Positions 15,492 to 27,681 of a DNA stretch of 44,987 nt are shown here, one piece after another (position 1 is the stretch's first letter; each line of letters starts with the position of its first letter). The position numbers and the translations under genes are program-made. Source of the stretch: a virus; IMG/VR virus record IMGVR_UViG_3300031521_000017, one strand, 5' to 3'. The notes beneath the pieces were generated by a model that saw only the letters and a program-made list of their open reading frames with translations, was not told where the DNA came from and searched no databases.

Positions 15492-15742
15492 AGAATTGTT
15501 GGGAAGGTTTTCGTTTTTAGAATTGGAAAATGCTCTGATGGACGGGAATGTCGTGAGGGAAACCAATTGTTAAATTTTTGTGAAATTTGCCCAAATGACG
15601 CCCCCCCCTCTACTCCATCGCAGTAGAGCGTTAGAGTTGTGGAGATTATGTGGAGATGAGAATTTCTCTTGTAAGTGTCAGACCAAAAGAGGAGAATGGA
15701 CCCATCGAAAGAAACCCGCACCACTGGCGAAGGGAAAAGACA

Positions 15743-15958
15743 ATGACAGACCAAGAGACACGCGAGATGCTGCAAGAGCAGAGCGATGCAACCGAGTGTA
15801 GCGGCAACTGCGAAAGCTGTCTTGTCTCTGGGAGCTACTTCCAAGCCGAGTGTAGAGTGTTCGCCGCATTCGCCGACCTAGACTACCAGCTTGACATCAT
15901 CGCGCGCGCCGACGAGCGCGCCGAGGAACTCGCTTATACAGAGGGGCGGTTGTCATAG
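15743..15958 (+). CDS. 71-aa acidic hypothetical protein (MTDQETREMLQEQ...)
   Basis: GC-rich ORF with a GAAGGG ribosome-binding site. Confidence 0.4.
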   Translation: MTDQETREMLQEQSDATECSGNCESCLVSGSYFQAECRVFAAFADLDYQLDIIARADERAEELAYTEGRLS

Positions 15959-16137
15959 TGACCAACATAGAGAACATCCGCGCGAATTGGAAGCTTTGCT
16001 CCACTTGCCCCTGCGACACTTGCTCAAACTGTATCGTTGCTCTTGACACCGGCGCGCTCATCGCGGCAGAAGTCGCGACCACGGGACAGGAACCCGCGCA
16101 AGTCATCAATCACGCCCACGCAGGATATCGCGCCTAG
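15958..16137 (+). CDS. about 59-aa Cys-rich peptide (CSTCPCDTCSNC), GTG start overlapping the upstream stop
   Basis: Open frame with a TAGTG overlap; the start codon is uncertain. Confidence 0.25.
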   Translation: MTNIENIRANWKLCSTCPCDTCSNCIVALDTGALIAAEVATTGQEPAQVINHAHAGYRA

Positions 16138-16185
16138 CAGACTCCAAGGGTGGGGAGCAATCCCCACCCAAAGAAGGGATAGACC

Positions 16186-16347
16186 ATGACCGGTATATAT
16201 ATCATCATCATCGAGCGTCAGGGACATATCATCATCAAGAAGTCCCATACCAAGAACTTCGATACCGCAGTCCGTCACGCAAACTGTATCATCAAGCGAG
16301 ATGGCGGCGAAGTCGTATCAGTGACCAAGGAAGGACGGCAATACTAA
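16186..16347 (+). CDS. 53-aa hypothetical protein (MTGIYIIIIERQGH...)
   Basis: GAAGGGATAG ribosome-binding site; ATG start. Confidence 0.4.
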   Translation: MTGIYIIIIERQGHIIIKKSHTKNFDTAVRHANCIIKRDGGEVVSVTKEGRQY

Positions 16348-16421
16348 TGGTAATGAGCATCGGTGTCTGTGTCGCTCTCTTCATTCTCATCTGTGGCGCA
16401 CCAAGCGCCCCTAAGCACTAG
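16347..16421 (+). CDS. 24-aa hydrophobic peptide (MVMSIGVCVALFILICGAPSAPKH)
   Basis: TAATG-coupled ORF with a single predicted transmembrane helix. Confidence 0.25.
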   Translation: MVMSIGVCVALFILICGAPSAPKH

Positions 16422-16433
16422 AAGGGACATACC

Positions 16434-16940
16434 ATGACTGCTACAGGACTTAGGAACATCGCGAAGGGTATCTGCTCGGTTCTTGCTTGTATCATCTACT
16501 GGACAGTGACGCACACCATCGCTTGGGAGGCTATCATCCCCGTTGTCCTCATCGCCGCAGTGCTCTACTACATGGGCGCACTCGTCCTCTACCTCGCCAC
16601 AATGGGGCAGTGCAAGAGAGAGGAGAAGGTGGAAACTTACACCGTCCCTCTCCTTGGATACCTCGGCGACCATACGTGGGCGACTCTCCGAGATGGTAAA
16701 GTAAGGGAGACACATATCTACCCCAACTCCATTACATACTCTCTCGGTGAAACAAGTGAACTCACCTACAAGAAAACACGCTATCGTCAAGTAGTAGAGG
16801 ATAACATCTTCGCACGTCTTGCACATGGAGACTCTGACCCAGAGTGGAAGGTATGGTACGAGCGCCCCACGCATATCACCTTGAGCGCCATCCCATACAA
16901 CAGAATCGTCAACAACTGCCAAGAGAGCGAGGTTAACTAA
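16434..16940 (+). CDS. 168-aa membrane protein (two N-terminal transmembrane helices plus a soluble domain)
   Basis: ORF with hydrophobic segments ICSVLACIIYWTV and IIPVVLIAAVLYYMGALVLYLA. Confidence 0.5.
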   Translation: MTATGLRNIAKGICSVLACIIYWTVTHTIAWEAIIPVVLIAAVLYYMGALVLYLATMGQCKREEKVETYTVPLLGYLGDHTWATLRDGKVRETHIYPNSITYSLGETSELTYKKTRYRQVVEDNIFARLAHGDSDPEWKVWYERPTHITLSAIPYNRIVNNCQESEVN

Positions 16941-16942
16941 TC

Positions 16943-17263
16943 ATGAGTGCTACCATAGCAGTCTCGCTAGAACATGGTGGAGGAGGAAAGCACCCAACCT
17001 TCGAGACTGCTATGGGAGCACTGCGCTCGCGCTTCAAGCGCTTGACCATATCACCTACACGCACATACACAGTGAATGGACAGCTTACTACTTGGTTCAT
17101 GCTCTACAATGGTAAAACTTGCGTAGGGTCGCTGTATGAGAAGTGTACGAATGACCATAGCGAAACACTTGCCTACCCTCAGTGTATCTTAGGAGAGCGC
17201 CTGTTTGAAGGAGGACCGTACAGAGAACAGAACCATGGGATGCTCGAATCAGGAGGTGTGTAA
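16943..17263 (+). CDS. 106-aa hypothetical protein
   Basis: ORF with a TAATCATGA junction to the upstream gene. Confidence 0.45.
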   Translation: MSATIAVSLEHGGGGKHPTFETAMGALRSRFKRLTISPTRTYTVNGQLTTWFMLYNGKTCVGSLYEKCTNDHSETLAYPQCILGERLFEGGPYREQNHGMLESGGV

Positions 17264-17341
17264 ATGTCAACCTTGCATCTTGGGATGATTTGTGTTACTG
17301 CAATCATCTGTTTCTGGATTCTGGTTCTTGGTTTGAACTGA
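17264..17341 (+). CDS. 25-aa hydrophobic peptide (MSTLHLGMICVTAIICFWILVLGLN)
   Basis: Strong AGGAGGT ribosome-binding site 7 nt upstream; single transmembrane helix. Confidence 0.35.
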   Translation: MSTLHLGMICVTAIICFWILVLGLN

Positions 17342-17389
17342 GCAAATAGTGTGACAACTCGCTTAGACAGAAGTTGGCACACTGCTTGC

Positions 17390-17405
17390 TGGCCGCGCGC
17401 GGCCA
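17390..17405. repeat. GC palindrome TGGCCGCGCGCGGCCA followed by AAGTTTTG (module 1)
   Basis: Member of a family of 7 GC hairpins, each followed by an A3-4T3-7 tract. Confidence 0.6.
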
Positions 17406-17412
17406 AGTTTTG

Positions 17413-17441
17413 ACTATACCACGAAGGCCACCATTTGTCAA
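17413..17441 (-). promoter_or_regulatory. predicted leftward promoter (minus strand TTGACA-N17-TATAGT) firing into the palindrome
   Basis: The reverse complement of the TTGTCAAGAGGA box is a perfect -35 box; TATAGT sits 17 nt away; the same arrangement recurs in modules 2, 4 and 5. Confidence 0.45.
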
Positions 17442-17486
17442 GAGGAAAACTCGAAAAAGATTTCTTTCTTTCTTTTCCCGAAACCC

Positions 17487-17515
17487 TTGCATCCTCCCAT
17501 CCAAGGTGCTAAGAT
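17487..17515 (+). promoter_or_regulatory. island-type rightward promoter CCCGAAACCC-TTGCAT-N17-TAAGAT
   Basis: Conserved upstream CCYGAAACCC context shared by 5 other island promoters. Confidence 0.5.
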
Positions 17516-17556
17516 GTATCTACGAGGTAAGAGGAACACGAACTTAGGAGCCAGAC

Positions 17557-17670
17557 ATGAGCAAGAACACCAGCCCCGCGCACGTTGTTCTCACTGCCGA
17601 GAAGGTCATGGAGATTGACCTTAAGAACCTTCAGACGAAGATGGCTTCGCGTAAGGTGCGTGTGAAGTAA
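17557..17670 (+). CDS. 37-aa basic peptide (MSKNTSPAHVVLTAEKVMEIDLKNLQTKMASRKVRVK)
   Basis: AGGAG ribosome-binding site; lies downstream of the island promoter. Confidence 0.35.
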   Translation: MSKNTSPAHVVLTAEKVMEIDLKNLQTKMASRKVRVK

Positions 17671-17951
17671 GGAATAAGTAAGGGCCGAGCCACCAAGTCC
17701 TAAGGGCTTGACTGCCGACGGGCGGTGAGGTACTATCGACGGATGGTACCTTGTGGGGCGTGATTAGTGACCTCGGGAGCGGGAGATATGGTACCCCGCA
17801 CATTGACAAGAGGATAGTAGGAGAGAAGAGTACACCCGCGGGAGAAAAAGCCTCTCCTGTTTAAACCATTCGCAGGATAGCTAACAGCGAAAGTGAAGGG
17901 TCTGACTTCAGTGAGTGGGATTGCAACCTAATCACCCCTTCTACTATCCCC

Positions 17952-17980
17952 TTGTCAGTGTCAAAGAACTATGCTACAAT
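17952..17980 (+). promoter_or_regulatory. promoter TTGTCA-N17-TACAAT
   Basis: Shares the TGCTACAATGAACTTACAGG -10 and start region with the promoter at 23949. Confidence 0.5.
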
Positions 17981-18027
17981 GAACTTACAGGAAACGCGGT
18001 GGGAGCCGCAGACAGAAGGAGCCTGAA

Positions 18028-18171
18028 ATGTCCACAGGTCGCAAGAACAATCTGGCTGCTCGTATCAAAGCTTTCGAGAACATGGGCAAGACCAAGATGG
18101 TCGGCGGACGCGTTGTATCTGGGACTACTGACAACGGCGCTTTCCACAAGCCCGGCTCGCAGAAGAAGTAG
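18028..18171 (+). CDS. 47-aa basic protein ending FHKPGSQKK (paralog of 35195..35374)
   Basis: GAAGGAG ribosome-binding site; the C-terminal FHKPGS(Q/N)KK is shared with a second gene 17 kb away. Confidence 0.45.
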   Translation: MSTGRKNNLAARIKAFENMGKTKMVGGRVVSGTTDNGAFHKPGSQKK

Positions 18172-18178
18172 GCGTAGC

Positions 18179-18418
18179 ATGGAGCACTACTCTCGCGGTT
18201 TTGCCGATGGGCGGTACGATCGTGGTTATTATGCCCCTCCGATTTGCGCTTCTGGATTCAGACCAAACCCTTACCACCGGGCCGAGTACATTGAAGGCTA
18301 CTGGGCGGGAATTCGCGCACGTCGCGCGGCTCAGTACCGCTCCTTCTACTCCGGGTATCGCGCAGGCTACGCTGCGGGGTACTGGGCAGGACGGAGGGAC
18401 TCGTACTACTACTACTAG
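18179..18418 (+). CDS. 79-aa Tyr/Gly/Arg-rich low-complexity protein (GYRAGYAAGYWAGRRDSYYYY)
   Basis: ORF with a repetitive G-Y-R/A composition. Confidence 0.4.
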   Translation: MEHYSRGFADGRYDRGYYAPPICASGFRPNPYHRAEYIEGYWAGIRARRAAQYRSFYSGYRAGYAAGYWAGRRDSYYYY

Positions 18419-18441
18419 TACATACTCCAAGAAAAGCACCC

Positions 18442-18475
18442 AAGAGACAATCTCAGAAAGTTGAGATTGTCTCTT
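18442..18475. terminator. 14-bp perfect hairpin AAGAGACAATCTCA-GAAAGT-TGAGATTGTCTCTT
   Basis: Hairpin only; flanked by a weak U-tract on the minus strand; could terminate transcripts from either direction. Confidence 0.45.
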
Positions 18476-18485
18476 GACATTTCGA

Positions 18486-18503
18486 CGCGCCGTGGGCGGC
18501 GCG
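18486..18503. repeat. GC palindrome CGCGCCG-TGGG-CGGCGCG followed by AAAATCT (module 2)
   Basis: Palindrome family member. Confidence 0.6.
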
Positions 18504-18511
18504 AAAATCTG

Positions 18512-18540
18512 ACAGTATCATACAATCGAGTATTTGTCAA
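18512..18540 (-). promoter_or_regulatory. predicted leftward promoter (minus strand TTGACA-N17-TACTGT)
   Basis: Same geometry as modules 1, 4 and 5. Confidence 0.4.
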
Positions 18541-18584
18541 GAGGAAAACTCAAAAATTATTTAGAATTAATTTTGCCTGAAACC

Positions 18585-18613
18585 TTGCTATCTTCTATCT
18601 GGTTTGCTATGCT
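18585..18613 (+). promoter_or_regulatory. island-type promoter CCTGAAACC-TTGCTA-N17-TATGCT
   Basis: Conserved context. Confidence 0.5.
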
Positions 18614-18648
18614 TAGCCTACGAAAAGCTACTAAGAAAGGAATTGGTC

Positions 18649-19326
18649 ATGGTTACTCCTCAGAATGTGATGAGTTACTTGGACAAGTTCTGTGACAGTT
18701 TCCAGAGCCTTACCTATTCGGACTTCGATACCGCTATTCAGCCCCTCAAAGATGCAATGGCAGCAGGGGAAGTTCCTCCCTTCGAGACTGCCTTTGGATG
18801 CACTAAAGGCGTCCTTATCTTTAAAGGTTGCGACTTCGTTGTGAAGATTCCTTTTGTTGGGGTTGCCAGTAGCTATTCGAGGTATTGCAAGTATACTGGC
18901 TCGAATAGCACAAATGGTTGGGACTACTGCCAGCGAGAGGTAGAAATCTACGAAGCTGCTAAAGAAGTAGGTGTAGCCAGTTTCCTCGCTGAGACCAAGT
19001 TGGTCGGATATGTCAAAGGGCATCCCATCTATACTCAGTCTCTTGTAGCGAATATCGGCAAAGCGGGATGTTATACTAGAGGTACAACCCCCAAGGTAGA
19101 GAGGCAAGCACGCCGTCTGCAAAGAGCAAGAACAACAGGTCAAGCGCATATGTGGGAGAATCTTCTTACTGCCATGATAGACACTTGTGGATTCCGCCTC
19201 ACCCAGCGATTCATGAACTTCTGTATCGCGCAAAAAACAGGGTCAGATTGGCATGATGGTAACTTCGGTCTTATCCCTCACACCACCGCTATCGTATTCT
19301 GCGATTACACTGGATATCGCAGATAA
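18649..19326 (+). CDS. 225-aa hypothetical protein
   Basis: ORF downstream of the island promoter; ATG with AGAAAGG upstream. Confidence 0.5.
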   Translation: MVTPQNVMSYLDKFCDSFQSLTYSDFDTAIQPLKDAMAAGEVPPFETAFGCTKGVLIFKGCDFVVKIPFVGVASSYSRYCKYTGSNSTNGWDYCQREVEIYEAAKEVGVASFLAETKLVGYVKGHPIYTQSLVANIGKAGCYTRGTTPKVERQARRLQRARTTGQAHMWENLLTAMIDTCGFRLTQRFMNFCIAQKTGSDWHDGNFGLIPHTTAIVFCDYTGYRR

Positions 19327-19363
19327 CAAAAACCAGTAAAATCCTATTGGCACGGATTTTGCT

Positions 19364-19379
19364 GGCCCGCACGCGGGCC
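19364..19379. repeat. GC palindrome GGCCCGC-AC-GCGGGCC followed by AAAATTTTTTT (module 3)
   Basis: Family member; preceded by a second small hairpin AAAATCC...GGATTTT (19338-19360). Confidence 0.6.
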
Positions 19380-19464
19380 AAAATTTTTTTGTCAATACTT
19401 TAGAGTTAGATTTTTGTGGAGATTTTGTTAACTCAAGATTAATTAGAATTATTCCTAAAATCCC

Positions 19465-19493
19465 TTGTGTTGGTCAGTCCTGCATGGTAAGAT
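19465..19493 (+). promoter_or_regulatory. island-type promoter CCTAAAATCCC-TTGTGT-N17-TAAGAT
   Basis: Conserved context; followed by about 480 nt with no convincing ORF. Confidence 0.45.
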
Positions 19494-19915
19494 GGTTTTG
19501 TTGAGAGGGAAGCATCAAGGAGTTGAGAGCAAGTCCTACTGGAAAATCGGGTCGCTCTCTGAAACAAAGAGACTCGCGAGTAGGGTACTTCTAAGGCGGA
19601 CTCCTTCTCCTCTCAACACATTGAAAAGAGAATGCTTGCCAATGTGAGAACCCACTCCACTACTAGGCCCAGGGCTGCAAAACTTCCTCCTCTGCTGTCC
19701 TCCCCGAACGACGAGAAAAGGCTCACTCAGAAAATACCTCTGGTGACTTGAGGAAGTCCAAGTATGCAAGCATTCTCTTTCTAATGTACATTGACAAGAG
19801 GATAGTGTAAGGGGACAGTCTTCCTAGGGCGCGGCCGTGAGTCCCTACCTAACATCACCTAGTTTCTGGAGTCATGCCCAGAGCGAAGTTGCAGCAGAAA
19901 AAATACACTATTCTC

Positions 19916-19944
19916 TTGTCAGTGTCACACCGATGTGATACAAT
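19916..19944 (+). promoter_or_regulatory. promoter TTGTCA-N17-TACAAT
   Basis: Same TCTTGTCAGTGTCA...TACAAT form as the promoter at 17952. Confidence 0.5.
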
Positions 19945-19991
19945 AAAGGCACAGTAAAAGGGCAGGGATGCCCACAAGAAAAGGAGTCAAA

Positions 19992-20366
19992 ATGGCCGAC
20001 ACTCGCATCACCAAGAAGGACCGTTTCGCCCAGATGAAGAACATCGTTCTGGATGGCGTGTTTGTTGACGCCGAGGCAGACCTGCGGGAAGAGCTGGTCG
20101 CGTTCATCGACCACGAGGTCGAGCTGCTTGACAAGCGCGCGGGTACGAGCGGAAAGCCCACGAAGGCTCAGATTGAAAACGAGAAAATCAAGGTCAACAT
20201 CCTTGCGGCTCTCACGGGGTCTGAGGACGGTCTGAGGGCCACGGACGTTGGAGTCCTGATGGACATTCCGGTTCAGAAGGCAACGGCCCTGCTCAAGCAG
20301 ATGGTGGACGATGGAACCATCACCCGCGAGATGATCAAAAAGGTGGCAATGTTCAAGGTCGCCTAA
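19992..20366 (+). CDS. paralog A of a small K/A-rich protein family with a winged-helix-like C-terminus
   Basis: AAAGGAG ribosome-binding site; alignable by eye to 23563, 24626 and 40975 (TKKDRF... / ...GLRATDVGVLMDIPVQKATALLKQMVDDGTITREMIKKVAMFKV). Confidence 0.55.
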   Translation: MADTRITKKDRFAQMKNIVLDGVFVDAEADLREELVAFIDHEVELLDKRAGTSGKPTKAQIENEKIKVNILAALTGSEDGLRATDVGVLMDIPVQKATALLKQMVDDGTITREMIKKVAMFKVA

Positions 20367-20487
20367 CCTCTACGGTACTCTACAACGGAAGGTAGATCCA
20401 AGTACCTGCTGACAGTACGGGCAGGAGCCAGAATTTCGATTTAAGGAGGTGAGTCCACGTTCTAGACAACAAATAGATTTTAGTGTA

Positions 20488-20540
20488 GGACTCCCCACTT
20501 GGTCAAGCCTTGTGGGGAGTTTTGTTTTATTTTTTTTTCT
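20488..20540 (+). terminator. strong rho-independent terminator
   Basis: GGACTCCCCAC...GTGGGGAGTTTTGTTTTATTTTTTTTT. Confidence 0.7.
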
Positions 20541-20565
20541 AGAAAGTTGGCATGAAATTTGCTGG

Positions 20566-20583
20566 CGCGCCGCCCACGGCGCG
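20566..20583. repeat. GC palindrome CGCGCCG-CCCA-CGGCGCG followed by AAATTTTT (module 4)
   Basis: Family member. Confidence 0.6.
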
Positions 20584-20591
20584 AAATTTTT

Positions 20592-20620
20592 ACTATAACA
20601 CACCAGGCCAACTTTGTCAA
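20592..20620 (-). promoter_or_regulatory. predicted leftward promoter (minus strand TTGACA-N17-TATAGT)
   Basis: Nearly identical to module 5 (TTGACAAAGTTGGCCTGGTGTGTTATAGTAAAAATTTCGC versus TTGACAAAAGTGGCTCAGTGTGTTACTGTAAAAATTTCGGC). Confidence 0.5.
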
Positions 20621-20665
20621 GAGAAAAACCAGAATTATTTTTCTTTTTTTCTTCTCCTGAAACCC

Positions 20666-20694
20666 TTGTCGCCTTGCCGCACCTGTGGTACAAT
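20666..20694 (+). promoter_or_regulatory. island-type promoter CCTGAAACCC-TTGTCG-N17-TACAAT
   Basis: Conserved context. Confidence 0.5.
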
Positions 20695-20728
20695 CAACAG
20701 ACAACAGACCACAACAGAAAGCGAAACA

Positions 20729-20998: not shown

Positions 20999-21005
20999 AA
21001 TCTTC

Positions 21006-21034: not shown

Positions 21035-21068
21035 AGACCAGTCAAAGAAACCAACCGAAAGGTCCATC

Positions 21069-21891: not shown

Positions 21892-21899
21892 AAATTTTT

Positions 21900-22491: not shown

Positions 22492-22536
22492 TGTGCTATA
22501 CTCTATACAACGACAAACAAGAAAGAAGGTTCGACA

Positions 22537-22791
22537 GTGAAAACCAACGAAATCATATTCGCCGCCGATTGTTCAGAGAACATCATAAATGCTCTGGTGG
22601 CGGTGTACCAGAATTCAACATACCAAGGAGGTCAGCATGACCTCACCACTTGCCGCATATGCCATGCGGAGCAAAACTGGGGTGGTAATGGAAGGGGTTG
22701 GAACCTAACGCACAAACCTCTGTGGAATGGTCAGCCCTGCCCAGTCGGAACGCTGGAAACTCTTCTCCAAGAGTTTTACAAGGAGGGATAG
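22537..22791 (+). CDS. 84-aa hypothetical protein (GTG start)
   Basis: ORF; start uncertain. Confidence 0.3.
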   Translation: MKTNEIIFAADCSENIINALVAVYQNSTYQGGQHDLTTCRICHAEQNWGGNGRGWNLTHKPLWNGQPCPVGTLETLLQEFYKEG

Positions 22792-22793
22792 AG

Positions 22794-23051
22794 ATGGGCA
22801 ATCCCTGCCAACAATGCAGACTCGACAATGGTAAATGCTCCTACTGGGACGAAGACAACCCCGATAACAACTTCTCACTCTCCACCGGCTATGATGAAGA
22901 TGGGGATTGTATGGCAGAAGATGCTGACTTCCCCGGCGACATATGCGAGAATTACCAAGCTGACCTCGCGGGAGACTACTGCGACCGCTGCGGCAATTAT
23001 CTCGGGAGTGAAGATGACGACGAAGAAAGCGAGTGTATCTGCAATGATTGA
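22794..23051 (+). CDS. 85-aa highly acidic Cys-rich protein (MGNPCQQCRLDNGKCSYWDEDNPDNN...DDDEESECICND)
   Basis: AAGGAGGGATAGAG ribosome-binding site; about 30% D/E; CxxC pairs. Confidence 0.45.
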   Translation: MGNPCQQCRLDNGKCSYWDEDNPDNNFSLSTGYDEDGDCMAEDADFPGDICENYQADLAGDYCDRCGNYLGSEDDDEESECICND

Positions 23052-23319
23052 TGTCGCTTGCGCCAACTATAACGGGCGCCATCGTTCTTGTGAGTGTTTC
23101 GACCTCGCAAGTGAGGATGACATTTCCAAAATGCTCTGCGACCACTTGGGAACTTGTGATGGATGGGGGAGTGAAACCTCCTGCATTAACTTCAAAGAGG
23201 CCGAAAGTTACTTCGAAAAAGATGAAGATGATGAATGCGATGGGAACTGTCCTTGCATCGACCTTTGTGATGAGGGTTCTGGAATGGTTCGAGAGACAAA
23301 ATGGCCTAAGATCTTCTGA
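23044..23319 (+). CDS. 91-aa acidic Cys-rich protein 2 (MIDVACANY...DEDDECDGNCPCIDLCDEG...)
   Basis: ATGATTGATG overlap with the upstream gene; acidic and cysteine-rich. Confidence 0.45.
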   Translation: MIDVACANYNGRHRSCECFDLASEDDISKMLCDHLGTCDGWGSETSCINFKEAESYFEKDEDDECDGNCPCIDLCDEGSGMVRETKWPKIF

Positions 23320-23351
23320 AATGCATCAATTTCATGTAATTATGCATGAAA

Positions 23352-23371
23352 TTGGCCCGCGTGCGGGCCAA
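23352..23371. repeat. GC palindrome TTGGCCCGC-GT-GCGGGCCAA followed by AATTT (module 6)
   Basis: Family member. Confidence 0.6.
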
Positions 23372-23477
23372 AATTTCAAATATCGTGCCAAAACCACCTT
23401 TTTTCGCCCAAAACAGCGAAAAATCTTGATTAATCTTCATTTCCCGAAATTAATTTAAGTTTATTTGCTATTTGGGG

Positions 23478-23506
23478 TTGTTTCTGCCGCAGAATAATGC
23501 TACAAT
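23478..23506 (+). promoter_or_regulatory. promoter TTGTTT-N17-TACAAT with an upstream CCCGAAA element
   Basis: Conserved -10 TGCTACAATGG. Confidence 0.4.
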
Positions 23507-23562
23507 GGTTTTGTTGAGAAAGAAGGAAGTGAGGCGGGAGCCTCCAAACGAAAGGCGTGACC

Positions 23563-23916
23563 ATGAACAAGAAGATGACCAAGCGCGAGATGTTCACCGC
23601 TGCTATCGCAATTGTTGCGGCTGCGAATGTCCCCGGAACCCCTGCTGTGGTGGAGGGTTTGAAGCACGAGCTGGAGTTGCTCAACAAGAAGTCCGCAGAT
23701 GGCAAGGGCAGCGCCAAGCACGCTGCCGAGGTTCGTGCCAACATGGACAAGGTTGTGACTGTCCTGTCTGATGAGGGCATCCGCGCCGCAGATGTTGGAA
23801 CTCTCGCAGACTTCTCGATTCAGAGGACTACGGCCCTCCTGAAGAAGCTTGTGGACAGCGGCGAGGTTGTCAGGGACGAGGTTAAGAAGGTAGCCTACTT
23901 CTCTCTCGCGGAGTAA
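23563..23916 (+). CDS. paralog B of the K/A-rich winged-helix-like family
   Basis: Alignable to 19992 (MNKKMTKREMF... / ...GIRAADVGTLADFSIQRTTALLKKLVDSGEVVRDEVKKVAYFSL). Confidence 0.55.
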   Translation: MNKKMTKREMFTAAIAIVAAANVPGTPAVVEGLKHELELLNKKSADGKGSAKHAAEVRANMDKVVTVLSDEGIRAADVGTLADFSIQRTTALLKKLVDSGEVVRDEVKKVAYFSLAE

Positions 23917-23948
23917 GCAAAAAGGGGAGAGAAATCTCCCCCAATCGC

Positions 23949-23977
23949 TTGTCCTAGTCGTGCCAATGTGCTACAAT
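23949..23977 (+). promoter_or_regulatory. promoter TTGTCC-N17-TACAAT
   Basis: Shares 20 nt (TGCTACAATGAACTTACARG) with the promoter at 17952. Confidence 0.5.
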
Positions 23978-24027
23978 GAACTTACAAGAAACAACGAACG
24001 CCCTACGGGGCAAGAAGGAGAGTTAGC

Positions 24028-24273
24028 ATGGAGTTTACTGTTATTGACACTTATGACTGCGAAACATCGCGTTTCGACACGTTGGACGCCGCGAGAGCGT
24101 ATGCTAAATCAGTCGCAGAGTGGCTGGTCGAGAGAGAGTATTTCGGTGAAACAGTCACAATCTCTATGATTGTTCCTTTTGAGGCTTGTGAAACTATCAG
24201 GCCGACGCCGGCTCCACCGATTGAGTTCTGCACTTGTCAGACAGTAGTGGTTACCACGACTGTCTGCGGATAG
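24028..24273 (+). CDS. 81-aa hypothetical protein
   Basis: GAAGGAGAG ribosome-binding site. Confidence 0.4.
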   Translation: MEFTVIDTYDCETSRFDTLDAARAYAKSVAEWLVEREYFGETVTISMIVPFEACETIRPTPAPPIEFCTCQTVVVTTTVCG

Positions 24274-24383
24274 CGAGTCCTACCCTACATTTAAATAAAT
24301 GGTTAACAGGTAGCTGCTGTTATTAAATGTCAGTTGTAAAACTCAGCCCCGCAGTCTCACCCTGAGGTTGAGGGTGAGATTTG

Positions 24384-24403
24384 TTGGCTCGCAAGCGAGC
24401 CAA
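24384..24403. repeat. palindrome TTGGCTCGC-AA-GCGAGCCAA followed by AATTTGACAG (module 7); preceded by the hairpin TCTCACCCT-GAGGTTG-AGGGTGAGA (24355-24379)
   Basis: Family member. Confidence 0.55.
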
Positions 24404-24524
24404 AATTTGACAGAAAACATCCTATAGGCATTTTTTGCCTTACCTCGTGACCCTTCTATATAGACTATAAAATTCCCAATATAGACCCCATAAGCCTTAT
24501 ATCGCCTAGCTCAAAAGATTTCTA

Positions 24525-24553
24525 TTGACACTTTTTTTGAAATGTGTTATAAT
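24525..24553 (+). promoter_or_regulatory. consensus sigma-A promoter TTGACA-N17(TGTGT)-TATAAT with an AAAAGATTT UP-like element
   Basis: One of three near-identical promoters (24525, 25181, 25912). Confidence 0.6.
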
Positions 24554-24625
24554 GAGATATAAGGAAAAAGGGAATGCATAAAAGGTGTGTTCCACAGAAT
24601 AAACAGAGAGGTTCGGTGTATTAAG

Positions 24626-25000
24626 GTGACGAAGGTTACGAAGCGCAACCAGTTTGTTGCTGTCCAGGAGATCCTGACTGGTCTCGGCGAGACGGATCGA
24701 GCAGACTTCATCGGTGCTCAGATTGCTCTTATCGACAAGCGCAAGACTGCAGACCGCAAGCCCACGAAGGCTCAGGAGGCTAATGCTGAGATCAAGGAGA
24801 GTATTGTCGAGACTCTCATTGGCTTTGATGGTCTGACTGCGACTGAGGTTGCAGGTACCGAGGACATCTCAGTCCAGAAGGCCAGCCAGCTGCTTACGCA
24901 GCTTGTGGCTGCGGAGATTGTTATCCGCGTCGAGGGCAAGGGCAAGGAGAAGACTAAGTTCAGCCTCGCTAATCGTGCGGAGGTTGACGCCGCAGAGTAA
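24626..25000 (+). CDS. paralog C of the K/A-rich winged-helix-like family (GTG start; an alternative GTG lies at 24587)
   Basis: With GTG at 24626 the N-terminus MTKVTKRNQF aligns with paralogs A, B and D; C-terminal part ...GLTATEVAGTEDISVQKASQLLTQLVAAEIVIRVEGKGKEKTKFSL. Confidence 0.5.
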   Translation: MTKVTKRNQFVAVQEILTGLGETDRADFIGAQIALIDKRKTADRKPTKAQEANAEIKESIVETLIGFDGLTATEVAGTEDISVQKASQLLTQLVAAEIVIRVEGKGKEKTKFSLANRAEVDAAE

Positions 25001-25180
25001 GTTATCTTAACCGAGAGGTTCCTCCGAAGTCCGAGGATTAAATAGGCAGGCTCCAGGTCCAGCCTCTCCACAAAGATAAGTTAGTTTTTTGGCCCTTAGT
25101 TCTACAAGGGACAGGCCATCCCGCCACGAGTCGCGACTCAGTGGAACTAACGGCTAAAAAGCTAACTTAAAAGATTTTGT

Positions 25181-25209
25181 TTGACAAAAAATAAAAAATA
25201 TGTTATAAT
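25181..25209 (+). promoter_or_regulatory. consensus sigma-A promoter TTGACA-N17-TATAAT
   Basis: AACTTAAAAGATTTTGTTTGACA upstream context. Confidence 0.6.
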
Positions 25210-25250
25210 AGAGATAACGAAAAAAGAAAAATCTAAAAAGGAGCTGCCGC

Positions 25251-25646
25251 ATGCGCTACGATCTCGATGGTAAGAATATCAACATCCCTGACAACTTCAT
25301 TGACACCAGCATGCACAATCTCGGCATCACTCGTCAGGAAGCTATTGACCTCTACCTGTCAGACAATGACTTCATTACTAACGATGAGATTGTCGCCATG
25401 ACAGTTAAGGCTAAGGCCGCAGGCACTGGTGCTAAGGCAACGGGGGAGAAAGTTGCCCACAAGGCTCCAGAGCGCAAGCCCGATCTCGTTAAGCGTGCAG
25501 TTATTGCTGCCCTTTCTGAATTCATCACGGGCACTGAGCACGTTGAGAATGTCACTATTACCAATATCGAGCGAATGATTGCTTTCGAAATTGGTGGAGA
25601 TAAGTTCGAAGTCGTGCTTACCAAGAAGCGTAAGCCCAAGGAGTAA
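25251..25646 (+). CDS. 131-aa hypothetical protein
   Basis: AAAGGAG ribosome-binding site. Confidence 0.5.
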   Translation: MRYDLDGKNINIPDNFIDTSMHNLGITRQEAIDLYLSDNDFITNDEIVAMTVKAKAAGTGAKATGEKVAHKAPERKPDLVKRAVIAALSEFITGTEHVENVTITNIERMIAFEIGGDKFEVVLTKKRKPKE

Positions 25647-25911
25647 TTACAATATGGGCCGGATATGACACGAAGTCATAGAAGAGACTTTCCGGGAGTA
25701 GGAGATCGGTACCCTACAATTTAATTATACCAGCAGGTCCAGTTTGCGACAGAGTAATGGGGCGGAACGATCATCCGCACTCCTGCTGATATAAAATCTT
25801 TTAAGTTGGCTTCTCAGTGGTGACGCGTAACCCGCCGTTGTCTCAGCTCTGGATGGCCATTCAACTGAGCCTTTTCAAAAAAATTTGAGAAGTCAACTTA
25901 AAAGATTTTCA

Positions 25912-25940
25912 TTGACAACTTTTCAAAAATGTGTTATAAT
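25912..25940 (+). promoter_or_regulatory. consensus sigma-A promoter TTGACA-N17-TATAAT
   Basis: CAACTTAAAAGATTTTCATTGACA upstream context. Confidence 0.6.
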
Positions 25941-25980
25941 AAGATATAGAAAAAAACAAAAGAAAGAAATGAGGAATACC

Positions 25981-26187
25981 ATGCGCGAGGTCTTCTACGT
26001 AATGCCATGTCCTGGCTCATTCACTCCGATTAATCTTGAAGGTGATGATTTCGTTCGACTCCCTGATGGTGTTCATGCAGCCACAGGTATCGGCACAGTC
26101 TTTATCGCTATGACACTTACTGGTCGTGCATTCTACGCCATTGAGGGTTGCCTCGTAATTGTAGACTTGGATGAGGTACTCGACTAA
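25981..26187 (+). CDS. 68-aa hypothetical protein
   Basis: GAGGAATACC ribosome-binding site. Confidence 0.4.
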   Translation: MREVFYVMPCPGSFTPINLEGDDFVRLPDGVHAATGIGTVFIAMTLTGRAFYAIEGCLVIVDLDEVLD

Positions 26188-26372
26188 TGCATGAGTATAA
26201 AATCCTCGTCACAGAGTGGGATTTGTCTTGCGGAGACCCTAACTCTTGGGTGAAGTTCCGCATGACAAATATCTTCAATATTCCAGCAAAGACTCTCGGT
26301 GATGCTCTTGGTAGGCTCGCAAAGTCTATGGGTTATGGCATTATCGAGTATGAAGTTCTTGCAATATATTAA
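26187..26372 (+). CDS. 61-aa hypothetical protein
   Basis: TAATG-coupled ORF. Confidence 0.35.
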   Translation: MHEYKILVTEWDLSCGDPNSWVKFRMTNIFNIPAKTLGDALGRLAKSMGYGIIEYEVLAIY

Positions 26373-27357
26373 CCATCAACGTCCTCTCCTATAGACCTGA
26401 GACGAAAAGGGTTTAGATTATGGAGGTTAAGGAAAGCTGATGTTTCCCCGGGAAGGATCATCAAGAGTCCCAAGTAACTTGACAGGCTTGGCTTTGAAGT
26501 GCGGTCCTTGAATCCGCACACTCTTGAGAGAAAAGGTGCGCGAAGAGTAAACTGCGTTGAATGTGGCTCACAGTCTGGCTGCAGCCTATGGGCATGGTAG
26601 GGTAGCGCCTTCACCGGTTAAGAAAAAACGCATCCTGATCGCTGGCCAAATGGGAGGCCCGCAGGATATAGTATTAAAGGTGCGCGATAGGCTTTCAGCG
26701 TTAAATGTGGGAAGTCAGGTCCACCCGCAGCCTACGGACTGATCTACCCGTTAAAGTGGATCTTGTGAGTGAATCTCCATTATAAAGAGTTGGGATACTA
26801 ATTATGGACCCAGCAACCGCCAGTAAGCTTGGGATAGGGATGAAGAATCAGGCCCCAATGCGGTTTGGACGCGTGAGCAGCAGCGAATAGCCATATATTG
26901 AGCCTTGGCTGCCACCTATTAGTGCGAAAAGGGAACTCTAAGTGAGTCAATTAGCCTACGACTTTAAATGCGGCTCAGTTACTGCTTGAGGAATAGCTAC
27001 CTCAGGAAAGCACAGCTTCGTTCCCCTGACTTTTAGCTTAAGATAGAAGCCTAGCACAAACTCAGGTTCCGCAAAGAGTAGAAAAGGTCGGAAAACATAT
27101 CTTATTGGGTGCTTCCTTCGAGATCCTGATGATAAAAATGAAGGGATCGAAGGACTATATCCCGCAGCTTGGTAGTGGTAGTGGTGTATGGTGCATACTA
27201 TAAACGAGGTGTGAGGTTCGAATCGTCCCTATGACAACGACCACCTGTCTTCGAAGCAGGTGGTCTAGCTACGATTATACCACAAAACCTGCACAATGTC
27301 AAGTTTTTTCTTCGACTTTAGTTATTGAATCTTTTTTTCTAAAATTCCCGAAATAAC
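26373..27357 (+). ncRNA. candidate large structured non-coding RNA (about 1 kb ORF-free, GC-balanced, internally repetitive, ending at a strong terminator)
   Basis: No ORF of at least 60 aa in frame with any signal. Internal repeat AAGGTGCGCGA...GCGTTRAATGTGG...CYGCAGCCTAYGG occurs twice, with a third partial copy. Many local hairpins, for example GTGCGG-TCCTTGAAT-CCGCAC and GACCACCTGTCTTCGAAGCAGGTGGTC. A tRNA T-loop-like GGTTCGAATC is present at 27207. Strand is inferred from the downstream terminator. Confidence 0.3.
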
Positions 27358-27396
27358 AGAAAGCCCTAGTCTATAAAAGACTAGGGCTTATTTTTA
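27358..27396. terminator. bidirectional terminator AGCCCTAGTCT-ATAAA-AGACTAGGGCT followed by TATTTTTA
   Basis: 11-bp perfect stem with T-rich flanks. Confidence 0.65.
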
Positions 27397-27681
27397 TACT
27401 TTTGATTCTGTATCTTCAAGTTTAATTGGACTAGACTCAATAGTAAGATTATCTATATGATGTATGTTCCAAGTAGCAGGGTCATTATTATCTGAATCTA
27501 AAACCTCAGCTATGCGGACTTGGGGTATATATTTAGCATCCCCAGACATCTCCATCATAGCTTGTATATTCTTATAAGCATTAGGTCTACTGAAGAAGGC
27601 TCCGCAGAATATCTCCTGTTTAACCTTATTTTCATTGTCTAAAACAAGAGCATAGGCAATGTAAATCTTTTCCATTGTCAT
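27394..27681 (-). CDS. 95-aa hypothetical protein
   Basis: ORF ending at the bidirectional terminator. Confidence 0.4.
   Translation of the reverse strand: MTMEKIYIAYALVLDNENKVKQEIFCGAFFSRPNAYKNIQAMMEMSGDAKYIPQVRIAEVLDSDNNDPATWNIHHIDNLTIESSPIKLEDTESKV

Follow-up and report, generated by a model that had tools for sequence, protein, structure and literature searches.

We examined a 44,987-nt stretch of viral DNA (IMG/VR record IMGVR_UViG_3300031521_000017, here called the window) and found that a GC-rich island of 11.7 kb within it is probably the phage family's own module of accessory genes, likely concerned with early takeover of the host, with a GC content that would derive from a long-standing regional pressure. 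Here we describe the anatomy, conservation, synteny and composition of this module, of which we consider the regional GC enrichment to be the interesting part.

Base composition and boundaries of the island

A two-change-point maximum-likelihood fit (log-likelihood gain 254) delimited the block at 15589..27273, with a GC content of 0.489 in the island versus 0.370 outside, so that the switches placed at ∼15.55 and ∼27.3 kb in the first-pass annotation were accurate. In 200-nt windows GC rises from 0.32-0.34 to 0.51-0.57 over ∼300 nt at the left boundary and falls from 0.46 to 0.29 at the right. The block is also real by codon usage, its GC3 being 0.59 versus 0.25-0.33 in the flanks: GC1/2/3 is 0.535/0.415/0.587 for 23 island genes and 0.472/0.340/0.306 for the structural genes, and GC3 in the right flank is 0.247 for minus-strand and 0.332 for plus-strand genes. 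The island prefers the codons AAG, GAG, CAG, CTC and CGC and has a single TTA codon, versus 154 in the structural genes. In dinucleotide composition the island lies at a distance of 68-100 from the flanks, only moderately more than the 54 that separates the flanks from each other, and the CpG ratio is 0.90 in the island compared with 0.64-0.72 in the flanks. GATC sites are fewer than expected in both, with 17 against an expected 42.6 in the island and 83 against an expected 123 in the flanks.

We rejected an assembly chimera, since independent assemblies are 100% identical over both boundaries and single contigs run over both, namely one Logan contig and a locus from an 85-kb ENA contig. Contig ends also bear on an explanation that we regard as improbable, namely that the island forms all or part of a long direct terminal repeat, or of the genome end that is injected first, as in SPO1 or T5, where a special replication and recombination history would account for the composition. 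Its size and content are like those of the SPO1 terminal region, it is next to the packaging genes, two independent assemblies have contigs beginning at 15492 and 15555 (<100 nt from the left boundary), a 12.4-kb contig spans little more than the island, and the 121.8-kb contig of one relative, L072 (L marks the loci of relatives), begins inside its own island. However, those contigs end on the right at scattered positions (25857, 27933 and 28182), other contigs pass straight through both boundaries, and GC-dependent coverage would give the same contig breaks.

Gene content

About 23 small genes, grouped into at least 12 short transcription units, make up the coding part of the island. Its features and those of its edges are:

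14298..15371, minus: conserved sigma-like gene, heading the structural and packaging block and divergent from the island
15401..15491, no single strand: divergent promoter region at the left island edge
15429 to 15401, minus: promoter of the sigma-like gene, TTGACT-17-TGaTATACT
15463-15491, plus: promoter into the island, TTGACG-17-TATAAT
15669..15697, plus: island-type promoter with degenerate -10, TTGTAA-17-GAGAAT
15743..17341, plus: first operon, small ORFs with ribosome-binding sites and independent gene calls (15743-15958, 15958-16137, 16186-16347, 16434-16940, 16943-17263, 17264-17341)
17376..17529, plus: cassette 1, with hairpin terminator 17390-17405, T-rich tract, antisense promoter TTGACA-17-TGgTATAGT (17441 to 17413) and sense promoter TTGCAT-17-TGcTAAGAT (17487-17515)
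17557..17670, plus: 37-aa gene with a homologue in L070
17671..17951, plus: ORF-free stretch with folding, a conserved block and a 20-nt repeat
17952..18418, plus: promoter TTGTCA-17-TGcTACAAT (17952-17980) upstream of genes 18028-18171 (47 aa) and 18179-18418 (79 aa, Tyr/Arg/Gly-rich)
18476..18626, plus: cassette 2, containing AAATTATTTAGAATTAAT, with hairpin 18486-18503, antisense promoter TTGACA-17-TGaTACTGT (18540 to 18512) and sense promoter TTGCTA-17-TGcTATGCT (18585-18613)
18649..19326, plus: 225-aa gene, function not assigned, homologue in L070; then terminator 19363-19380
19361..19494, plus: weaker cassette copy, sense promoter TTGTGT-17-TGgTAAGAT (19465-19493)
19497..19915, plus: ORF-free stretch 3' of a promoter
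19992-20366, plus: winged-helix paralogue 1, promoter TTGTCA-17-TGaTACAAT at 19916-19944
20554..20708, plus: cassette 3, with hairpin 20566-20583, antisense promoter TTGACA-17-TGtTATAGT (20620 to 20592) and sense promoter TTGTCG-17-TGgTACAAT (20666-20694)
20729-20998, plus: small membrane-like gene
21069-21806, plus: 245-aa gene, matching only phrog_20187 (a PHROG family without known function)
21863..22015, plus: cassette 4, with hairpin 21874-21891, antisense promoter TTGACA-17-TGtTACTGT (21928 to 21900) and sense promoter TTGCTA-17-TACACT (21973-22001)
22042-22491, plus: 5'-3' deoxyribonucleotidase-like gene, start of operon 22042..23319
22537-22791, 22794-23051 and 23044-23319, plus: three Cys-rich genes, the last two very acidic
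23354-23369, plus: terminator after this operon
23478-23506, plus: promoter TTGTTT-17-TGcTACAAT, before winged-helix paralogue 2 (23563-23916)
23923-23942: hairpin, called by the terminator scan on the minus strand only
23949-23977, plus: promoter TTGTCC-17-TGcTACAAT, then gene 24028-24273 and terminator 24386-24401
24525..26372, plus: right third of the island, driven by three textbook promoters (24525-24553, 25181-25209, 25912-25940), with winged-helix paralogue 3 (24626-25000) and genes 25251-25646, 25981-26187 and 26187-26372
26373..27273, no strand assigned: ORF-free island end of 900 nt, with an internal 35-nt repeat at 26532 and 26676
27215..27302, no strand assigned: conserved right-boundary block
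27302 to 27274, minus: boundary promoter TTGACA-17-TGgTATAAT
27361..27389, both strands: bidirectional terminator closing the island against convergent minus-strand genes

This map upholds the earlier description of the island as small genes, mostly of no known function, with many promoters of their own. Function-bearing family matches were obtained for only two island proteins, both weak (5'-3' deoxyribonucleotidase-like and winged-helix fold), and family searches with the genes of the first operon gave no match; within that operon, 16434-16940 is membrane-like and 17264-17341 encodes a 25-aa hydrophobic peptide. From its motifs, we would guess that the product of 21069-21806 is a candidate DnaQ-like exonuclease.

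The winged-helix genes form a family of four, with 26-38% identity to the first member. The fourth copy had been described as a GC-rich islet in AT-rich DNA, and this proved correct:

40893..41429, plus: GC-rich islet of moron-like anatomy
40893-40921, plus: islet promoter TTGATA-17-TATAAT
40975-41382, plus: winged-helix paralogue 4, GC 0.51 in AT-rich DNA
41394-41429, plus: islet terminator, 3' of paralogue 4

Non-coding DNA makes up ∼4.7 kb, or ∼40%, of the island (GC 0.45). This is more than the terminator-promoter cassettes need, and the island may therefore contain RNA genes that lie beyond our account of the module. The plus strand of 17671..17951 folds better than its shuffles (z -3.2; minus strand z -0.1) and includes a 40-nt block (17762-17801) that is conserved in L072 with one compensatory pair, GCGGG/CCCGC versus GCGAG/CTCGC. 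It also contains one copy of the 20-nt repeat ACATTGACAAGAGGATAGT; the second copy, at 19788, lies in 19497..19915, a stretch for which no homologue was found. The island end, 26373..27273, has no ORF even with any stop-codon reassignment, and its ends, though not its middle, are conserved in L002, L069 and L070; L070 and L072 likewise have stretches of roughly 1-1.7 kb in which no gene was called. The right-boundary block carries a T-loop-like GGTTCGAATC at 27215-27224, the homologous L070 site being a tRNA (44 bits in Rfam), and a covarying hairpin, GACCnnnnG-TCTTCGAAG-CnnnnGGTC, at 27239-27265.

Promoters and terminator-promoter cassettes

The repeated promoter form reported for the island was borne out and is also conserved in other phages. 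It reads CCYGAAACCCTTGYNN-N17-TAnnnT and occurs at 17480, 18580, 20659 and 21966, within repeated 150-nt cassettes that bound most transcription units of the island. A second form, TTGTCA/TTGTNN-N17-TGnTACAAT or TGnTAAGAT, is found at 17952, 19465, 19916, 23478 and 23949. The cassettes consist of a GC-rich hairpin terminator, often a perfect back-facing promoter, TTGACA-N17-TGnTAnnnT, an A/T-rich tract and the forward promoter, and in five aligned copies the invariant columns are exactly the promoter determinants, on both strands. An HMM built from those five copies, which is biased toward the window's own clade, matched 53 times, with 6 of the matches in the window and the other 47 in the loci of 19 relatives; all are co-oriented with the island genes except for three (one each in L001, L054 and L062). 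On the sense strand, 19 of 27 aligned cassettes have TTGnnn-16/17/18-TGnTAnnnT (spacer 17 in 16), and a perfect TTGACA promoter is present on the antisense strand in 11/27. The cassettes resemble the PeSL terminator/promoter cassettes that mediate modular shuffling in T4-type phages (PMC2839356, PMC4122927), and gene order is shuffled among our relatives also. Upstream of the 15669 promoter lies a conserved ACTCCAYC..TGGAG..GAGTTGTGGAG, shared with L072 (two copies) and L070.

The contrast that had been drawn between island and flanking promoters held only in part. The island form is real, but the island also has perfect textbook promoters at 24525, 25181 and 25912; the right flank does use textbook promoters (seven 12/12 matches), whereas the left flank has no site of at least 11/12 within the structural module, where the best minus-strand sites are 10/12. 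The sole 11/12 site of the left-flank scan is the plus-strand island-edge promoter at 15463.

The island promoters retain the sigma-A determinants (TTG, spacer 17, TGn, TAnnnT), with less critical positions shifted to G/C. Since TTG at -35, the 17-nt spacer, TG at -15/-14 and TAnnnT are kept, the host polymerase should read them, and we infer from these positions that host sigma-A/sigma-70 polymerase would read the forward promoters with no need of a special sigma factor. A modified or phage-specific sigma factor, suggested in the first-pass annotation, is unlikely, and we think it highly improbable that the island promoters are a separate class for such a factor, for example the product of 14298-15371. 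The conserved cassette extras GAAACCC, 5' of the -35, and TGTCA, in the spacer, are foreign to the sigma-A consensus, and 14298-15371 matches phrog_5767 (E 2e-47), which PHROGs label 'sigma factor'. However, the invariant positions coincide with those of an extended -10 sigma-70/sigma-A promoter, the AT-rich relative L010 has the near-consensus TTGACT-17-TGGTATACT in the same cassette position, the paralogous genes of the right island third are driven by textbook promoters, and the sigma-like protein has no Pfam sigma domain, no other Pfam match and no PDB relative.

Conservation in relatives and origin of the module

TerL and the sigma-like gene place the phage with large siphoviruses (120-190 kb), among them Enterococcus phages EF1, H1 and VRE9. 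With the sigma-like gene as anchor we identified about 60 large siphovirus relatives, Enterococcus phage EF1 being distantly related. A divergent module upstream of the sigma-like gene is present in 41 IMG/VR loci and 9 MAG contigs, with orthologues of 21069-21806 (in most relatives, GC 0.25-0.55), 22042-22491, 20729-20998, 25251-25646 and the winged-helix family. Module GC in the relatives is 0.25-0.55 (0.25-0.51 over 8 kb) versus 0.29-0.39 on the structural side; most lineages of the sigma tree have an excess of +0.05 or more, and it is about zero or slightly negative in EF1, L007-L010, L029/L041 and L034. L069, L070 and L072 show 58-75% identity for 21069-21806 and a module GC of 0.45-0.56, and the sharp GC drop at the right edge recurs in L070 and L072, the L069 contig ending before that edge. 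The window and these three loci differ in how the membrane gene, 21069-21806, the nucleotidase, the Cys-rich genes and the winged-helix genes are ordered.

No uniformly GC-rich phage was seen among the about 60 relatives. Recent lateral acquisition of the island is therefore unlikely, and neither are the AT-rich parts the acquired ones, as the first-pass annotation had reasoned such a relative would imply. That the island was recently taken from a GC-richer donor and has yet to drift toward its AT-rich recipient, close to the original proposal of a laterally acquired module, strikes us as very doubtful. The sharp boundaries, a composition that at every codon position resembles a 50%-GC genome, the higher CpG ratio and the lack of any megablast match among cultured phages would fit a donor, but orthologous genes occupy the same locus in the relatives, AT-rich versions included, the nearest relatives by sigma gene are also the nearest by island genes, and GATC is avoided in island and flanks equally. 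The closest relatives are all GC-rich at only about 50-75% protein identity, so this state is old. GC richness that is module-wide, and found in many lineages beside AT-rich structural genes, argues for a long-standing pressure on the family's own module rather than recent transfer. GC-rich modules occur at scattered places on the sigma tree, and related phages may nevertheless exchange whole modules.

Possible causes of the GC excess

The enrichment reaches all three codon positions, intergenic DNA and non-critical promoter positions. Reading by host polymerase cannot explain a GC richness confined to the island, since the AT-rich right flank has many perfect sigma-A promoters. One tentative, though rather unlikely, explanation is recombination-driven GC-biased gene conversion, in which the many direct repeats of the cassettes would turn the module into a hot spot of recombination, both inside one genome and between relatives that co-infect, and biased heteroduplex repair would then lift GC regionally. 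The island has at least five cassettes and many relatives have cassettes too, gene order is shuffled, the excess in non-coding DNA and non-critical promoter positions would fit a function-blind process, and GC3 is lower in the winged-helix paralogue outside the island (0.48) than in the three inside (0.64-0.77). On the other hand, some cassette-bearing relatives, such as L019 and L055 (0.32-0.38), have little GC excess, and the distant GC-rich clade L033/L040 has no cassette match with the clade-biased HMM. GC-biased gene conversion is not known from phages, and neither are the PeSL-rich regions of T4-type phages known to be GC-rich.

A cause that we also regard as rather unlikely is selection acting on the first-expressed genes, at the level of their DNA or RNA; such genes might in this way escape host proteins or nucleases directed against foreign DNA that is AT-rich or RNA that is AU-rich, or their translation might be controlled through codons and tRNAs. 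At least 19 phage tRNAs lie just right of the window, including Lys-CUU, Glu-CUC and Gln-CUG, which read G-ending codons, L070 has nine tRNAs in its island (including Lys-CUU, Glu-CUC, Gln-CUG and Arg-ACG), and the codon preference of the island given above is in keeping with such control. We also count in favour that in the related phAss-1 group suppressor tRNAs serve to control the late genes (PMC10607447). However, the MAG bins of the relatives disagree with one another as to the host, and strong host-type promoters are also present in the AT-rich right flank. Non-coding DNA is GC-enriched as well, and selection on codons alone is therefore insufficient.

Proposed role of the module

The module lies between the structural and packaging block and the remaining genome, and its repeated cassettes supply homology for recombination. 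An analogue is the SPO1 host-takeover module, with 12.4 kb, 26 small early genes and strong promoters (PMC6873191), and it is a general finding that the early genes of phages differ from the late ones in codon usage (PMC5683454). From their sequence the island promoters would probably be active, with early expression of the genes they drive, and the module would most likely serve host takeover; we therefore find an early or anti-host function the most plausible one for this module in the phage family.

Composition and boundaries of the GC-rich island

The abrupt change in base composition that the first-pass annotation placed at 15.55 and 27.3 kb is borne out by two measures. In a sliding profile GC content is 0.44-0.54 from about 15.5 to 27.3 kb and 0.29-0.39 in the adjoining DNA, and a two-change-point likelihood fit sets the boundaries of the island at 15589 and 27273, with GC of 0.489 inside and 0.370 outside (log-likelihood gain 254). 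The transition is about 300 nt wide at either edge. Our island gene list comprises 23 plus-strand ORFs with ribosome-binding sites, and it is matched by the gene calls in independent public assemblies of the same phage. The codon-usage comparison proposed as a check in the first pass also separates the compartments, most of the leucine codon TTA, for instance, lying in the structural genes (154 occurrences vs 1 in the island). Codons preferred in the island are AAG, GAG, CTC, ATC and CGC. The non-genic DNA of the island (4.7 kb) has a GC content of 0.45.

Table. GC content by codon position in groups of genes of the window
Island genes: GC1 0.535, GC2 0.415, GC3 0.587
Structural genes, left flank: GC1 0.472, GC2 0.340, GC3 0.306
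Right-flank genes, minus strand: GC3 0.247
Right-flank genes, plus strand: GC3 0.332

The window is matched at 100% identity by ten contigs of ENA, JGI and Logan assemblies, and both boundaries are crossed by one Logan contig as well as by a locus from an 85-kb ENA contig. Because independent assemblies are identical over both boundaries, we rejected the idea that the island is an assembly chimera. Two contigs, from independent assemblies, start less than 100 nt from the left boundary, at 15492 (JGI 3300030943) and 15555 (ENA ERZ27248698), and one 12.4-kb contig covers essentially the island alone; the breaks near the left boundary could mark a coverage step, caused by a terminal repeat or by GC bias.

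The tetranucleotide GATC is rarer than expected in both compartments, to the same degree (17 vs 42.6 expected in the island, 83 vs 123 in the flanks), which suggests long exposure to a GATC-specific restriction system. The dinucleotide distance between island and flanks is 68-100 and that between the two flanks 54, so that the island stands only moderately apart.

Distribution of the module among related phages

The phage belongs to a group of large siphoviruses, with contigs of 85 to 190 kb, as judged by TerL, the portal protein and the PHROG 'sigma factor' family. Its cultured relatives are distant (TerL identity 44-47%) and include the Enterococcus phages EF1, H1 and VRE9, Geobacillus phage E3 and phAss-1; a megablast search of the island and left flank against 50,697 phage records gave no match. 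As an anchor for finding relatives we used the sigma-like gene (14298-15371, minus strand), which lies back-to-back with the island, and obtained 41 IMG/VR loci and 9 MAG-binned contigs. The counterpart of the island in these loci is the 10 kb upstream of the anchor, where we found orthologs of 21069-21806 (phrog_20187), 22042-22491 (nucleotidase-like), 20729-20998, 25251-25646 and the winged-helix family. Three closer relatives, the contigs L069, L070 and L072, were found through protein 25251-25646; their orthologs of 21069-21806 are 58-75% identical to that of the window (74% in L070), and their modules have a GC content of 0.45-0.56. The GC drop at the right edge is sharp in L070 and L072, while the L069 contig stops short of this edge. 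A metagenome scan with protein 25251-25646 yielded no confirmed locus. The hosts suggested by the MAG bins are contradictory (Agathobacter, Erysipelotrichaceae, Acutalibacteraceae, Bacteroidales and Alphaproteobacteria).

When arranged on a tree of the anchor protein, all lineages have a structural-side GC content of 0.29-0.39, and in most of them the module is richer in GC than the structural side, the difference reaching +0.15. In EF1, L007-L010, L029/L041 and L034 it is close to zero or a little below. The ortholog of 21069-21806 alone spans a GC content of 0.25 (L009/L010), 0.32 (EF1 and L029/L041), 0.40-0.45 and 0.52-0.55 (the window, L001, L002 and L028). Homologous phages with uniformly GC-rich genomes, which the first-pass annotation held would make the AT-rich parts the acquired ones, were not seen among the relatives found. 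We considered phAss-1 (44.5% GC overall) as such a relative and rejected it, as it is a mosaic and its first 100 kb contain no homologs of island genes. In that part of its genome (L074/L075; OQ749652.1, 1-100000) a 32-kb block that includes TerL has a GC content of 0.31-0.41, and values elsewhere are mostly 0.42-0.54. This phage is known for TAG recoding of its late genes.

The syntenic orthologs, the shared avoidance of GATC and the moderate dinucleotide distance argue against recent acquisition, and the lateral origin first proposed for the island is thus not upheld: relatives carry an orthologous module at the same locus, and the flanks avoid GATC as the island does. We conclude that the island has long been a syntenic component of the family's genome plan and that its composition has diverged from that of its neighbors.

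Genes of the island, the islet and the flanks

The island genes were described in the first pass as small and mostly without assigned function, and indeed the 23 products have lengths of 25-245 amino acids and only three have a family match of any kind. The 245-amino acid protein (21069-21806) matches only a PHROG family of unknown function; from our own reading of its motifs we would guess at a candidate DnaQ-like exonuclease. The product of 22042-22491 is 5'-3' deoxyribonucleotidase-like. The winged-helix family has three members in the island and a fourth outside it, and its C-terminal half is an ArsR/MarR-type winged helix (profile match to PDB 9z71_A, E 1.2e-4). The AlphaFold model has a pLDDT of 71, rising to 81-87 over the C-terminal domain, and an H-H-H-E-E topology; Foldseek comparison of this model with ArsR/MarR regulators gave a probability of 1.0, yet TM scores of only 0.4-0.5. 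The fourth copy indeed lies in a GC-rich islet, as first noted, with a GC content of 0.51 between neighbors at 0.32-0.35. The islet (40893-41429) consists of:

40893-40921, promoter
40975-41382, single gene, fourth member of the winged-helix family
41394-41429, terminator

Two neighboring small proteins of the island (22794-23051 and 23044-23319) are Cys-rich, strongly acidic and without family match, a composition reminiscent of DNA-mimic anti-restriction proteins. Counted by eye, the product of 22794-23051 has roughly 27 Asp/Glu vs 4 Lys/Arg residues in 85 amino acids.

Despite its PHROG label, the sigma-like gene encodes no Pfam sigma-70 domain. The C-terminus of its product is a Cys4 zinc-ribbon-like motif with a weak match to HNH/endonuclease VII families; possible roles of the protein are in late activation or in packaging. 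Sequence searches detected no PDB relatives of this protein or of the 245-amino acid protein, and a look-up of protein 1711-2652 returned nothing on record. The AT-rich right flank carries an NAD-salvage cluster (35675-38150) of a CTP_transf_like nucleotidyltransferase, a NUDIX hydrolase and a nicotinamide phosphoribosyltransferase.

Promoters

A repeated promoter form had been reported for the island, and it is present: CCYGAAACCC-TTGYNN-N17-TAnnnT occurs four times (17480, 18580, 20659 and 21966), each time within a repeated unit of about 150 nt, hereafter the cassette, and is conserved in other phages. A second form, TTGTCA/TTGTNN-N17-TGnTACAAT or TGnTAAGAT, occurs at 17952, 19465, 19916, 23478 and 23949. 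The accompanying statement that the flanks use textbook promoters holds for the right flank, with seven 12/12 matches, and fails for the left, where the structural block contains no site of at least 11/12 and the best minus-strand sites reach 10/12. The island itself has textbook promoters, three perfect ones in its right third (24525, 25181 and 25912) and another at its left edge (15463). A search for late promoters revealed no upstream motif common to the structural genes, the block of which is nearly gap-free.

Nine island promoters have the full set of TTG, a spacer of 17±1, TG at -15/-14 and TAnnnT (17487, 17952, 18585, 19465, 19916, 20666, 21006, 23478 and 23949), while that at 21973 lacks the TG. 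The positions that lean to G/C are tolerant ones: in the -35 element bases 4-6, and in the -10 element bases 3-4. Judged by its sequence, the island 'dialect' is a sigma-A-type promoter with an extended -10, since the critical positions are kept and the tolerant ones are shifted to G/C. The modified or phage-specific sigma factor suggested in the first pass finds no support in promoters that retain the sigma-A determinants.

The cassette promoters have two further conserved elements, GAAACCC and, in the spacer, TGTCA, at which a regulator, for instance one of the module's own winged-helix proteins, may bind. Candidate target motifs for the four paralogs may include TTGWCAAGAG, the spacer TGTCA and TTAATTAGAATTAAT; five copies of the first of these lie on the island's plus strand, against 0.24 expected in the whole window.

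The terminator-promoter cassette

When the four repeats of the window are aligned with the copy in L001, the invariant columns fall exactly on the promoter determinants of both strands. In this alignment a GC hairpin followed by AAATTTT precedes a back-facing TTGACA-N17-TGnTAnnnT promoter and a forward promoter. The island contains four full cassettes and one weaker copy. Of the 53 matches to a cassette profile HMM, 6 lie in the window and 47 in the loci of 19 relatives, all in the orientation of the module genes with three exceptions (one each in L001, L054 and L062). There are nine copies in L070, seven in L055, six in L069, five in L019 and four in L072, and single copies are found even in the AT-rich L008-L010.

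The consensus of 27 aligned copies reads hairpin, often TTTTGTCAAGAGGAAAA, often AAAATTAATTAGAATTAAT, then CCnGAAAnCCTTGY-nnn-TGTCA-N8-TGGTA(A/C/T)(G/A)AT. A complete forward promoter with extended -10 is present in 19 of the 27 copies, from several phages, and a back-facing promoter in 11 copies across phages, with a perfect TTGACA every time. The same cassette in the AT-rich L010 has TTGACT-17-TGGTATACT as its forward promoter. Within the cassettes of the window, the back-facing promoters with perfect TTGACA and extended -10 are:

17413-17441, minus strand, back-facing promoter
18512-18540, minus strand, back-facing promoter
20592-20620, minus strand, back-facing promoter
21900-21928, minus strand, back-facing promoter

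Each of them is directed into the terminator and into the 3' end of the gene before the cassette. A transcript from 18540 to the minus-strand terminator at 18477-18440 is predicted to yield an RNA of about 70 nt. The order of shared genes differs among the window, L069, L070 and L072, a pattern consistent with shuffling.

Non-coding DNA and the right boundary element

About 40% of the island lies outside protein-coding calls, and relatives are similar, L070 for example being roughly 57% coding by the sum over public gene calls. The cassettes account for part of this DNA. Long ORF-free stretches are found at 17671-17951, 19497-19915 and 26373-27273; reassignment of TGA, TAG or TAA opens no long ORF in them, and tblastx against relatives revealed no decayed genes. 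Rfam 15, in which we expect the large phage-associated RNAs GOLLD and ROOL to be covered, gave no family at gathering thresholds in the window and the loci of 8 relatives, and relaxed scans (E up to 5-10) returned just terminator look-alikes and a few scattered matches at chance level.

Compared with shuffled sequences, folding is markedly stronger only for 17671-17951 on the plus strand alone (z -3.2), for 24274-24500 on both strands (z about -3) and for 25001-25170 (z -5.6); the 900-nt stretch 26373-27273 does not stand out on either strand (z -1.6). The first of these shares a 40-nt block with L072 that includes one compensatory pair. Two ORF-free stretches carry the exact 20-nt repeat ACATTGACAAGAGGATAGT (17800-17819 and 19788-19807), each copy about 130-150 nt upstream of a TTGTCA-type promoter.

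Conservation of 26373-27273 is confined to its ends. The motif GGTGCGCGA-N8-CWGCGTTRAATGYGG occurs twice, 144 nt apart (26532-26566 and 26676-26710), and once at the homologous place in L002 (about 1041-1075); a scan of IMG/VR for GGTGCGCGA-N8-CWGCGTTRAATG returned only L002/L005 contigs and one unrelated coding match. The right end is a block conserved in five lineages. Part of it is the T-loop-like GGTTCGAATC, and the homologous site is a 44-bit tRNA match in L070 and an odd tRNA-like call in L069. The block also includes a hairpin (within 27239-27302) in which the loop, TCTTCGAAG, is fixed and the stem covaries over four phages (ACCACCTG, ACCGTGAG, ACCGTCAG and CCCGTAGG). Immediately upstream of this hairpin, at the exact right edge of the island, is a perfect minus-strand promoter that five lineages share and that is aimed into the island.

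Comparison with known systems

The host-takeover module of the Bacillus phage SPO1 is a 12.4-kb terminal region containing genes 37-60 (PMC6873191). Like it, the island measures some 12 kb and is organized in short operons, with roughly two dozen small genes, most of them without assigned function, many close-set strong promoters and good ribosome-binding sites (PMC6873191). With 23 genes and at least 13 promoters in 11.7 kb, it falls within the range of about 20-26 small genes of an SPO1-type cluster. We found no sequence homology between the two modules. By analogy we infer that the island genes may be expressed early and act against the host as in SPO1, and an early, anti-host-like module with a conserved promoter form would be a plausible description. 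To our knowledge, no strong difference in GC content between this module and the remaining genome has been described for SPO1.

Promoter-early stem-loop (PeSL) elements are units of a terminator and an early promoter in the hyperplastic regions of T4-type phages, where they mediate modular shuffling (PMC2839356, PMC4122927). Like these, the cassettes are small, conserved units of terminator and sigma-70-type promoter repeated between small non-essential genes, the order of which is shuffled; a stem-loop terminator is followed directly by an early-type promoter, repeatedly among small accessory genes. They differ in belonging to another lineage (large siphoviruses, probably of Firmicutes), presumably in sequence, in their greater length (about 150 nt) and in the additional, perfect back-facing promoter of 11 of the 27 cassettes. 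We regard them as analogs of the PeSL elements, not as homologs.

Morons, as defined by Hendrix and co-workers, are units of promoter, gene and terminator that stand on their own within phage genomes and have an atypical composition; they are usually single, lineage-specific insertions. The islet matches this layout exactly and the units of the island each resemble a moron, but the island units form a conserved syntenic module common to the whole family. Similarly, sharp compositional boundaries and atypical codon usage recall a horizontally acquired island, whereas the module is orthologous and syntenic across the family at the same locus. As to signatures of mobility, we found no integrase among the island ORFs of the window, direct repeats do not flank the island, and its edge lacks a bona fide tRNA.

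Gene groups within one phage genome, early and late, can differ in synonymous codon usage (Mioduser et al. 2017, PMC5683454). The island shares this property, but its contrast is large (GC3 0.59 vs 0.31), has sharp physical boundaries, includes non-coding DNA and is absent from the other promoter-rich region, the right flank. By its anatomy the island belongs with known kinds, as a putative host-takeover module that contains PeSL-like cassettes; its unusual feature is a GC compartment that extends across the family and varies in size.

Possible causes of the GC excess

Every codon position shows the excess of GC, as do the spacers and the tolerant promoter positions, so that selection on codons is not sufficient by itself and a regional, largely function-blind pressure is needed. 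One candidate is GC-biased conversion tied to recombination at the cassettes, in favor of which the winged-helix paralog outside the island has a GC3 of 0.48 vs 0.64-0.77 for the three inside. A special replication history of the island as a terminal repeat is another candidate, at which the contig ends at 15492 and 15555 weakly hint; the L072 contig likewise starts inside its island.

A third candidate is selection on early DNA or RNA, which may be coupled to phage tRNAs. A scan of the window gave no tRNA, and at the right edge of its island there is only a degenerate, T-arm-like tRNA remnant. L063, a contig of the same phage, has at least 19 tRNA genes at 10484-19760, that is, from about 20 nt to 9.3 kb past the right end of the window, as well as a predicted tmRNA with the tag peptide GNAKTVAI. 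In the two-codon boxes of this array Glu and Gln have only the anticodons specific for G-ending codons (CUC and CUG), and Lys has both UUU and CUU. L070 (8518-9303 and 12089-12157) has nine tRNA genes within its GC-rich island (Lys-CUU, Glu-CUC, Val-UAC, Arg-ACG, Phe, Ala, Asn, Gln-CUG and Leu-UAG), plus one more at the right edge. The Lys-CUU, Glu-CUC and Gln-CUG tRNAs of both sets favor this candidate. That early genes are GC-rich is no complete rule, because the AT-rich right flank has strong host-type promoters.

A joint reading, which we offer tentatively and consider rather unlikely as a whole, is that the entire family keeps two compartments, an early hyperplastic module driven to about 50% GC and a remainder at about 35%. 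The driver would be regional, either GC-biased conversion through recombination at the cassettes or selection for evading host factors directed against AT-rich DNA or RNA, with support from phage tRNAs for G-ending codons, and some of the module's non-coding DNA, which is unusually plentiful, would encode new RNAs, such as the boundary element with its tRNA-like remnant and covarying hairpin, or antisense transcripts from the back-facing promoters.

It has long been asked whether mutation bias, biased gene conversion or selection sets GC content. Here, adjacent parts of one small genome, presumably served by the same replication machinery in the same cell, differ in GC3 (0.59 vs 0.31), and the contrast ranges from none to +0.15 over dozens of related phages, which provides a natural comparative series. 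The competing causes predict different polymorphism spectra, recombination maps, and relations to host GC and tRNA sets. Our results also caution that sharp GC islands in phage genomes should not be taken as foreign DNA, and they would extend the range of PeSL-like cassettes for shuffling to large siphoviruses, a lineage for which metagenomes are the main source.
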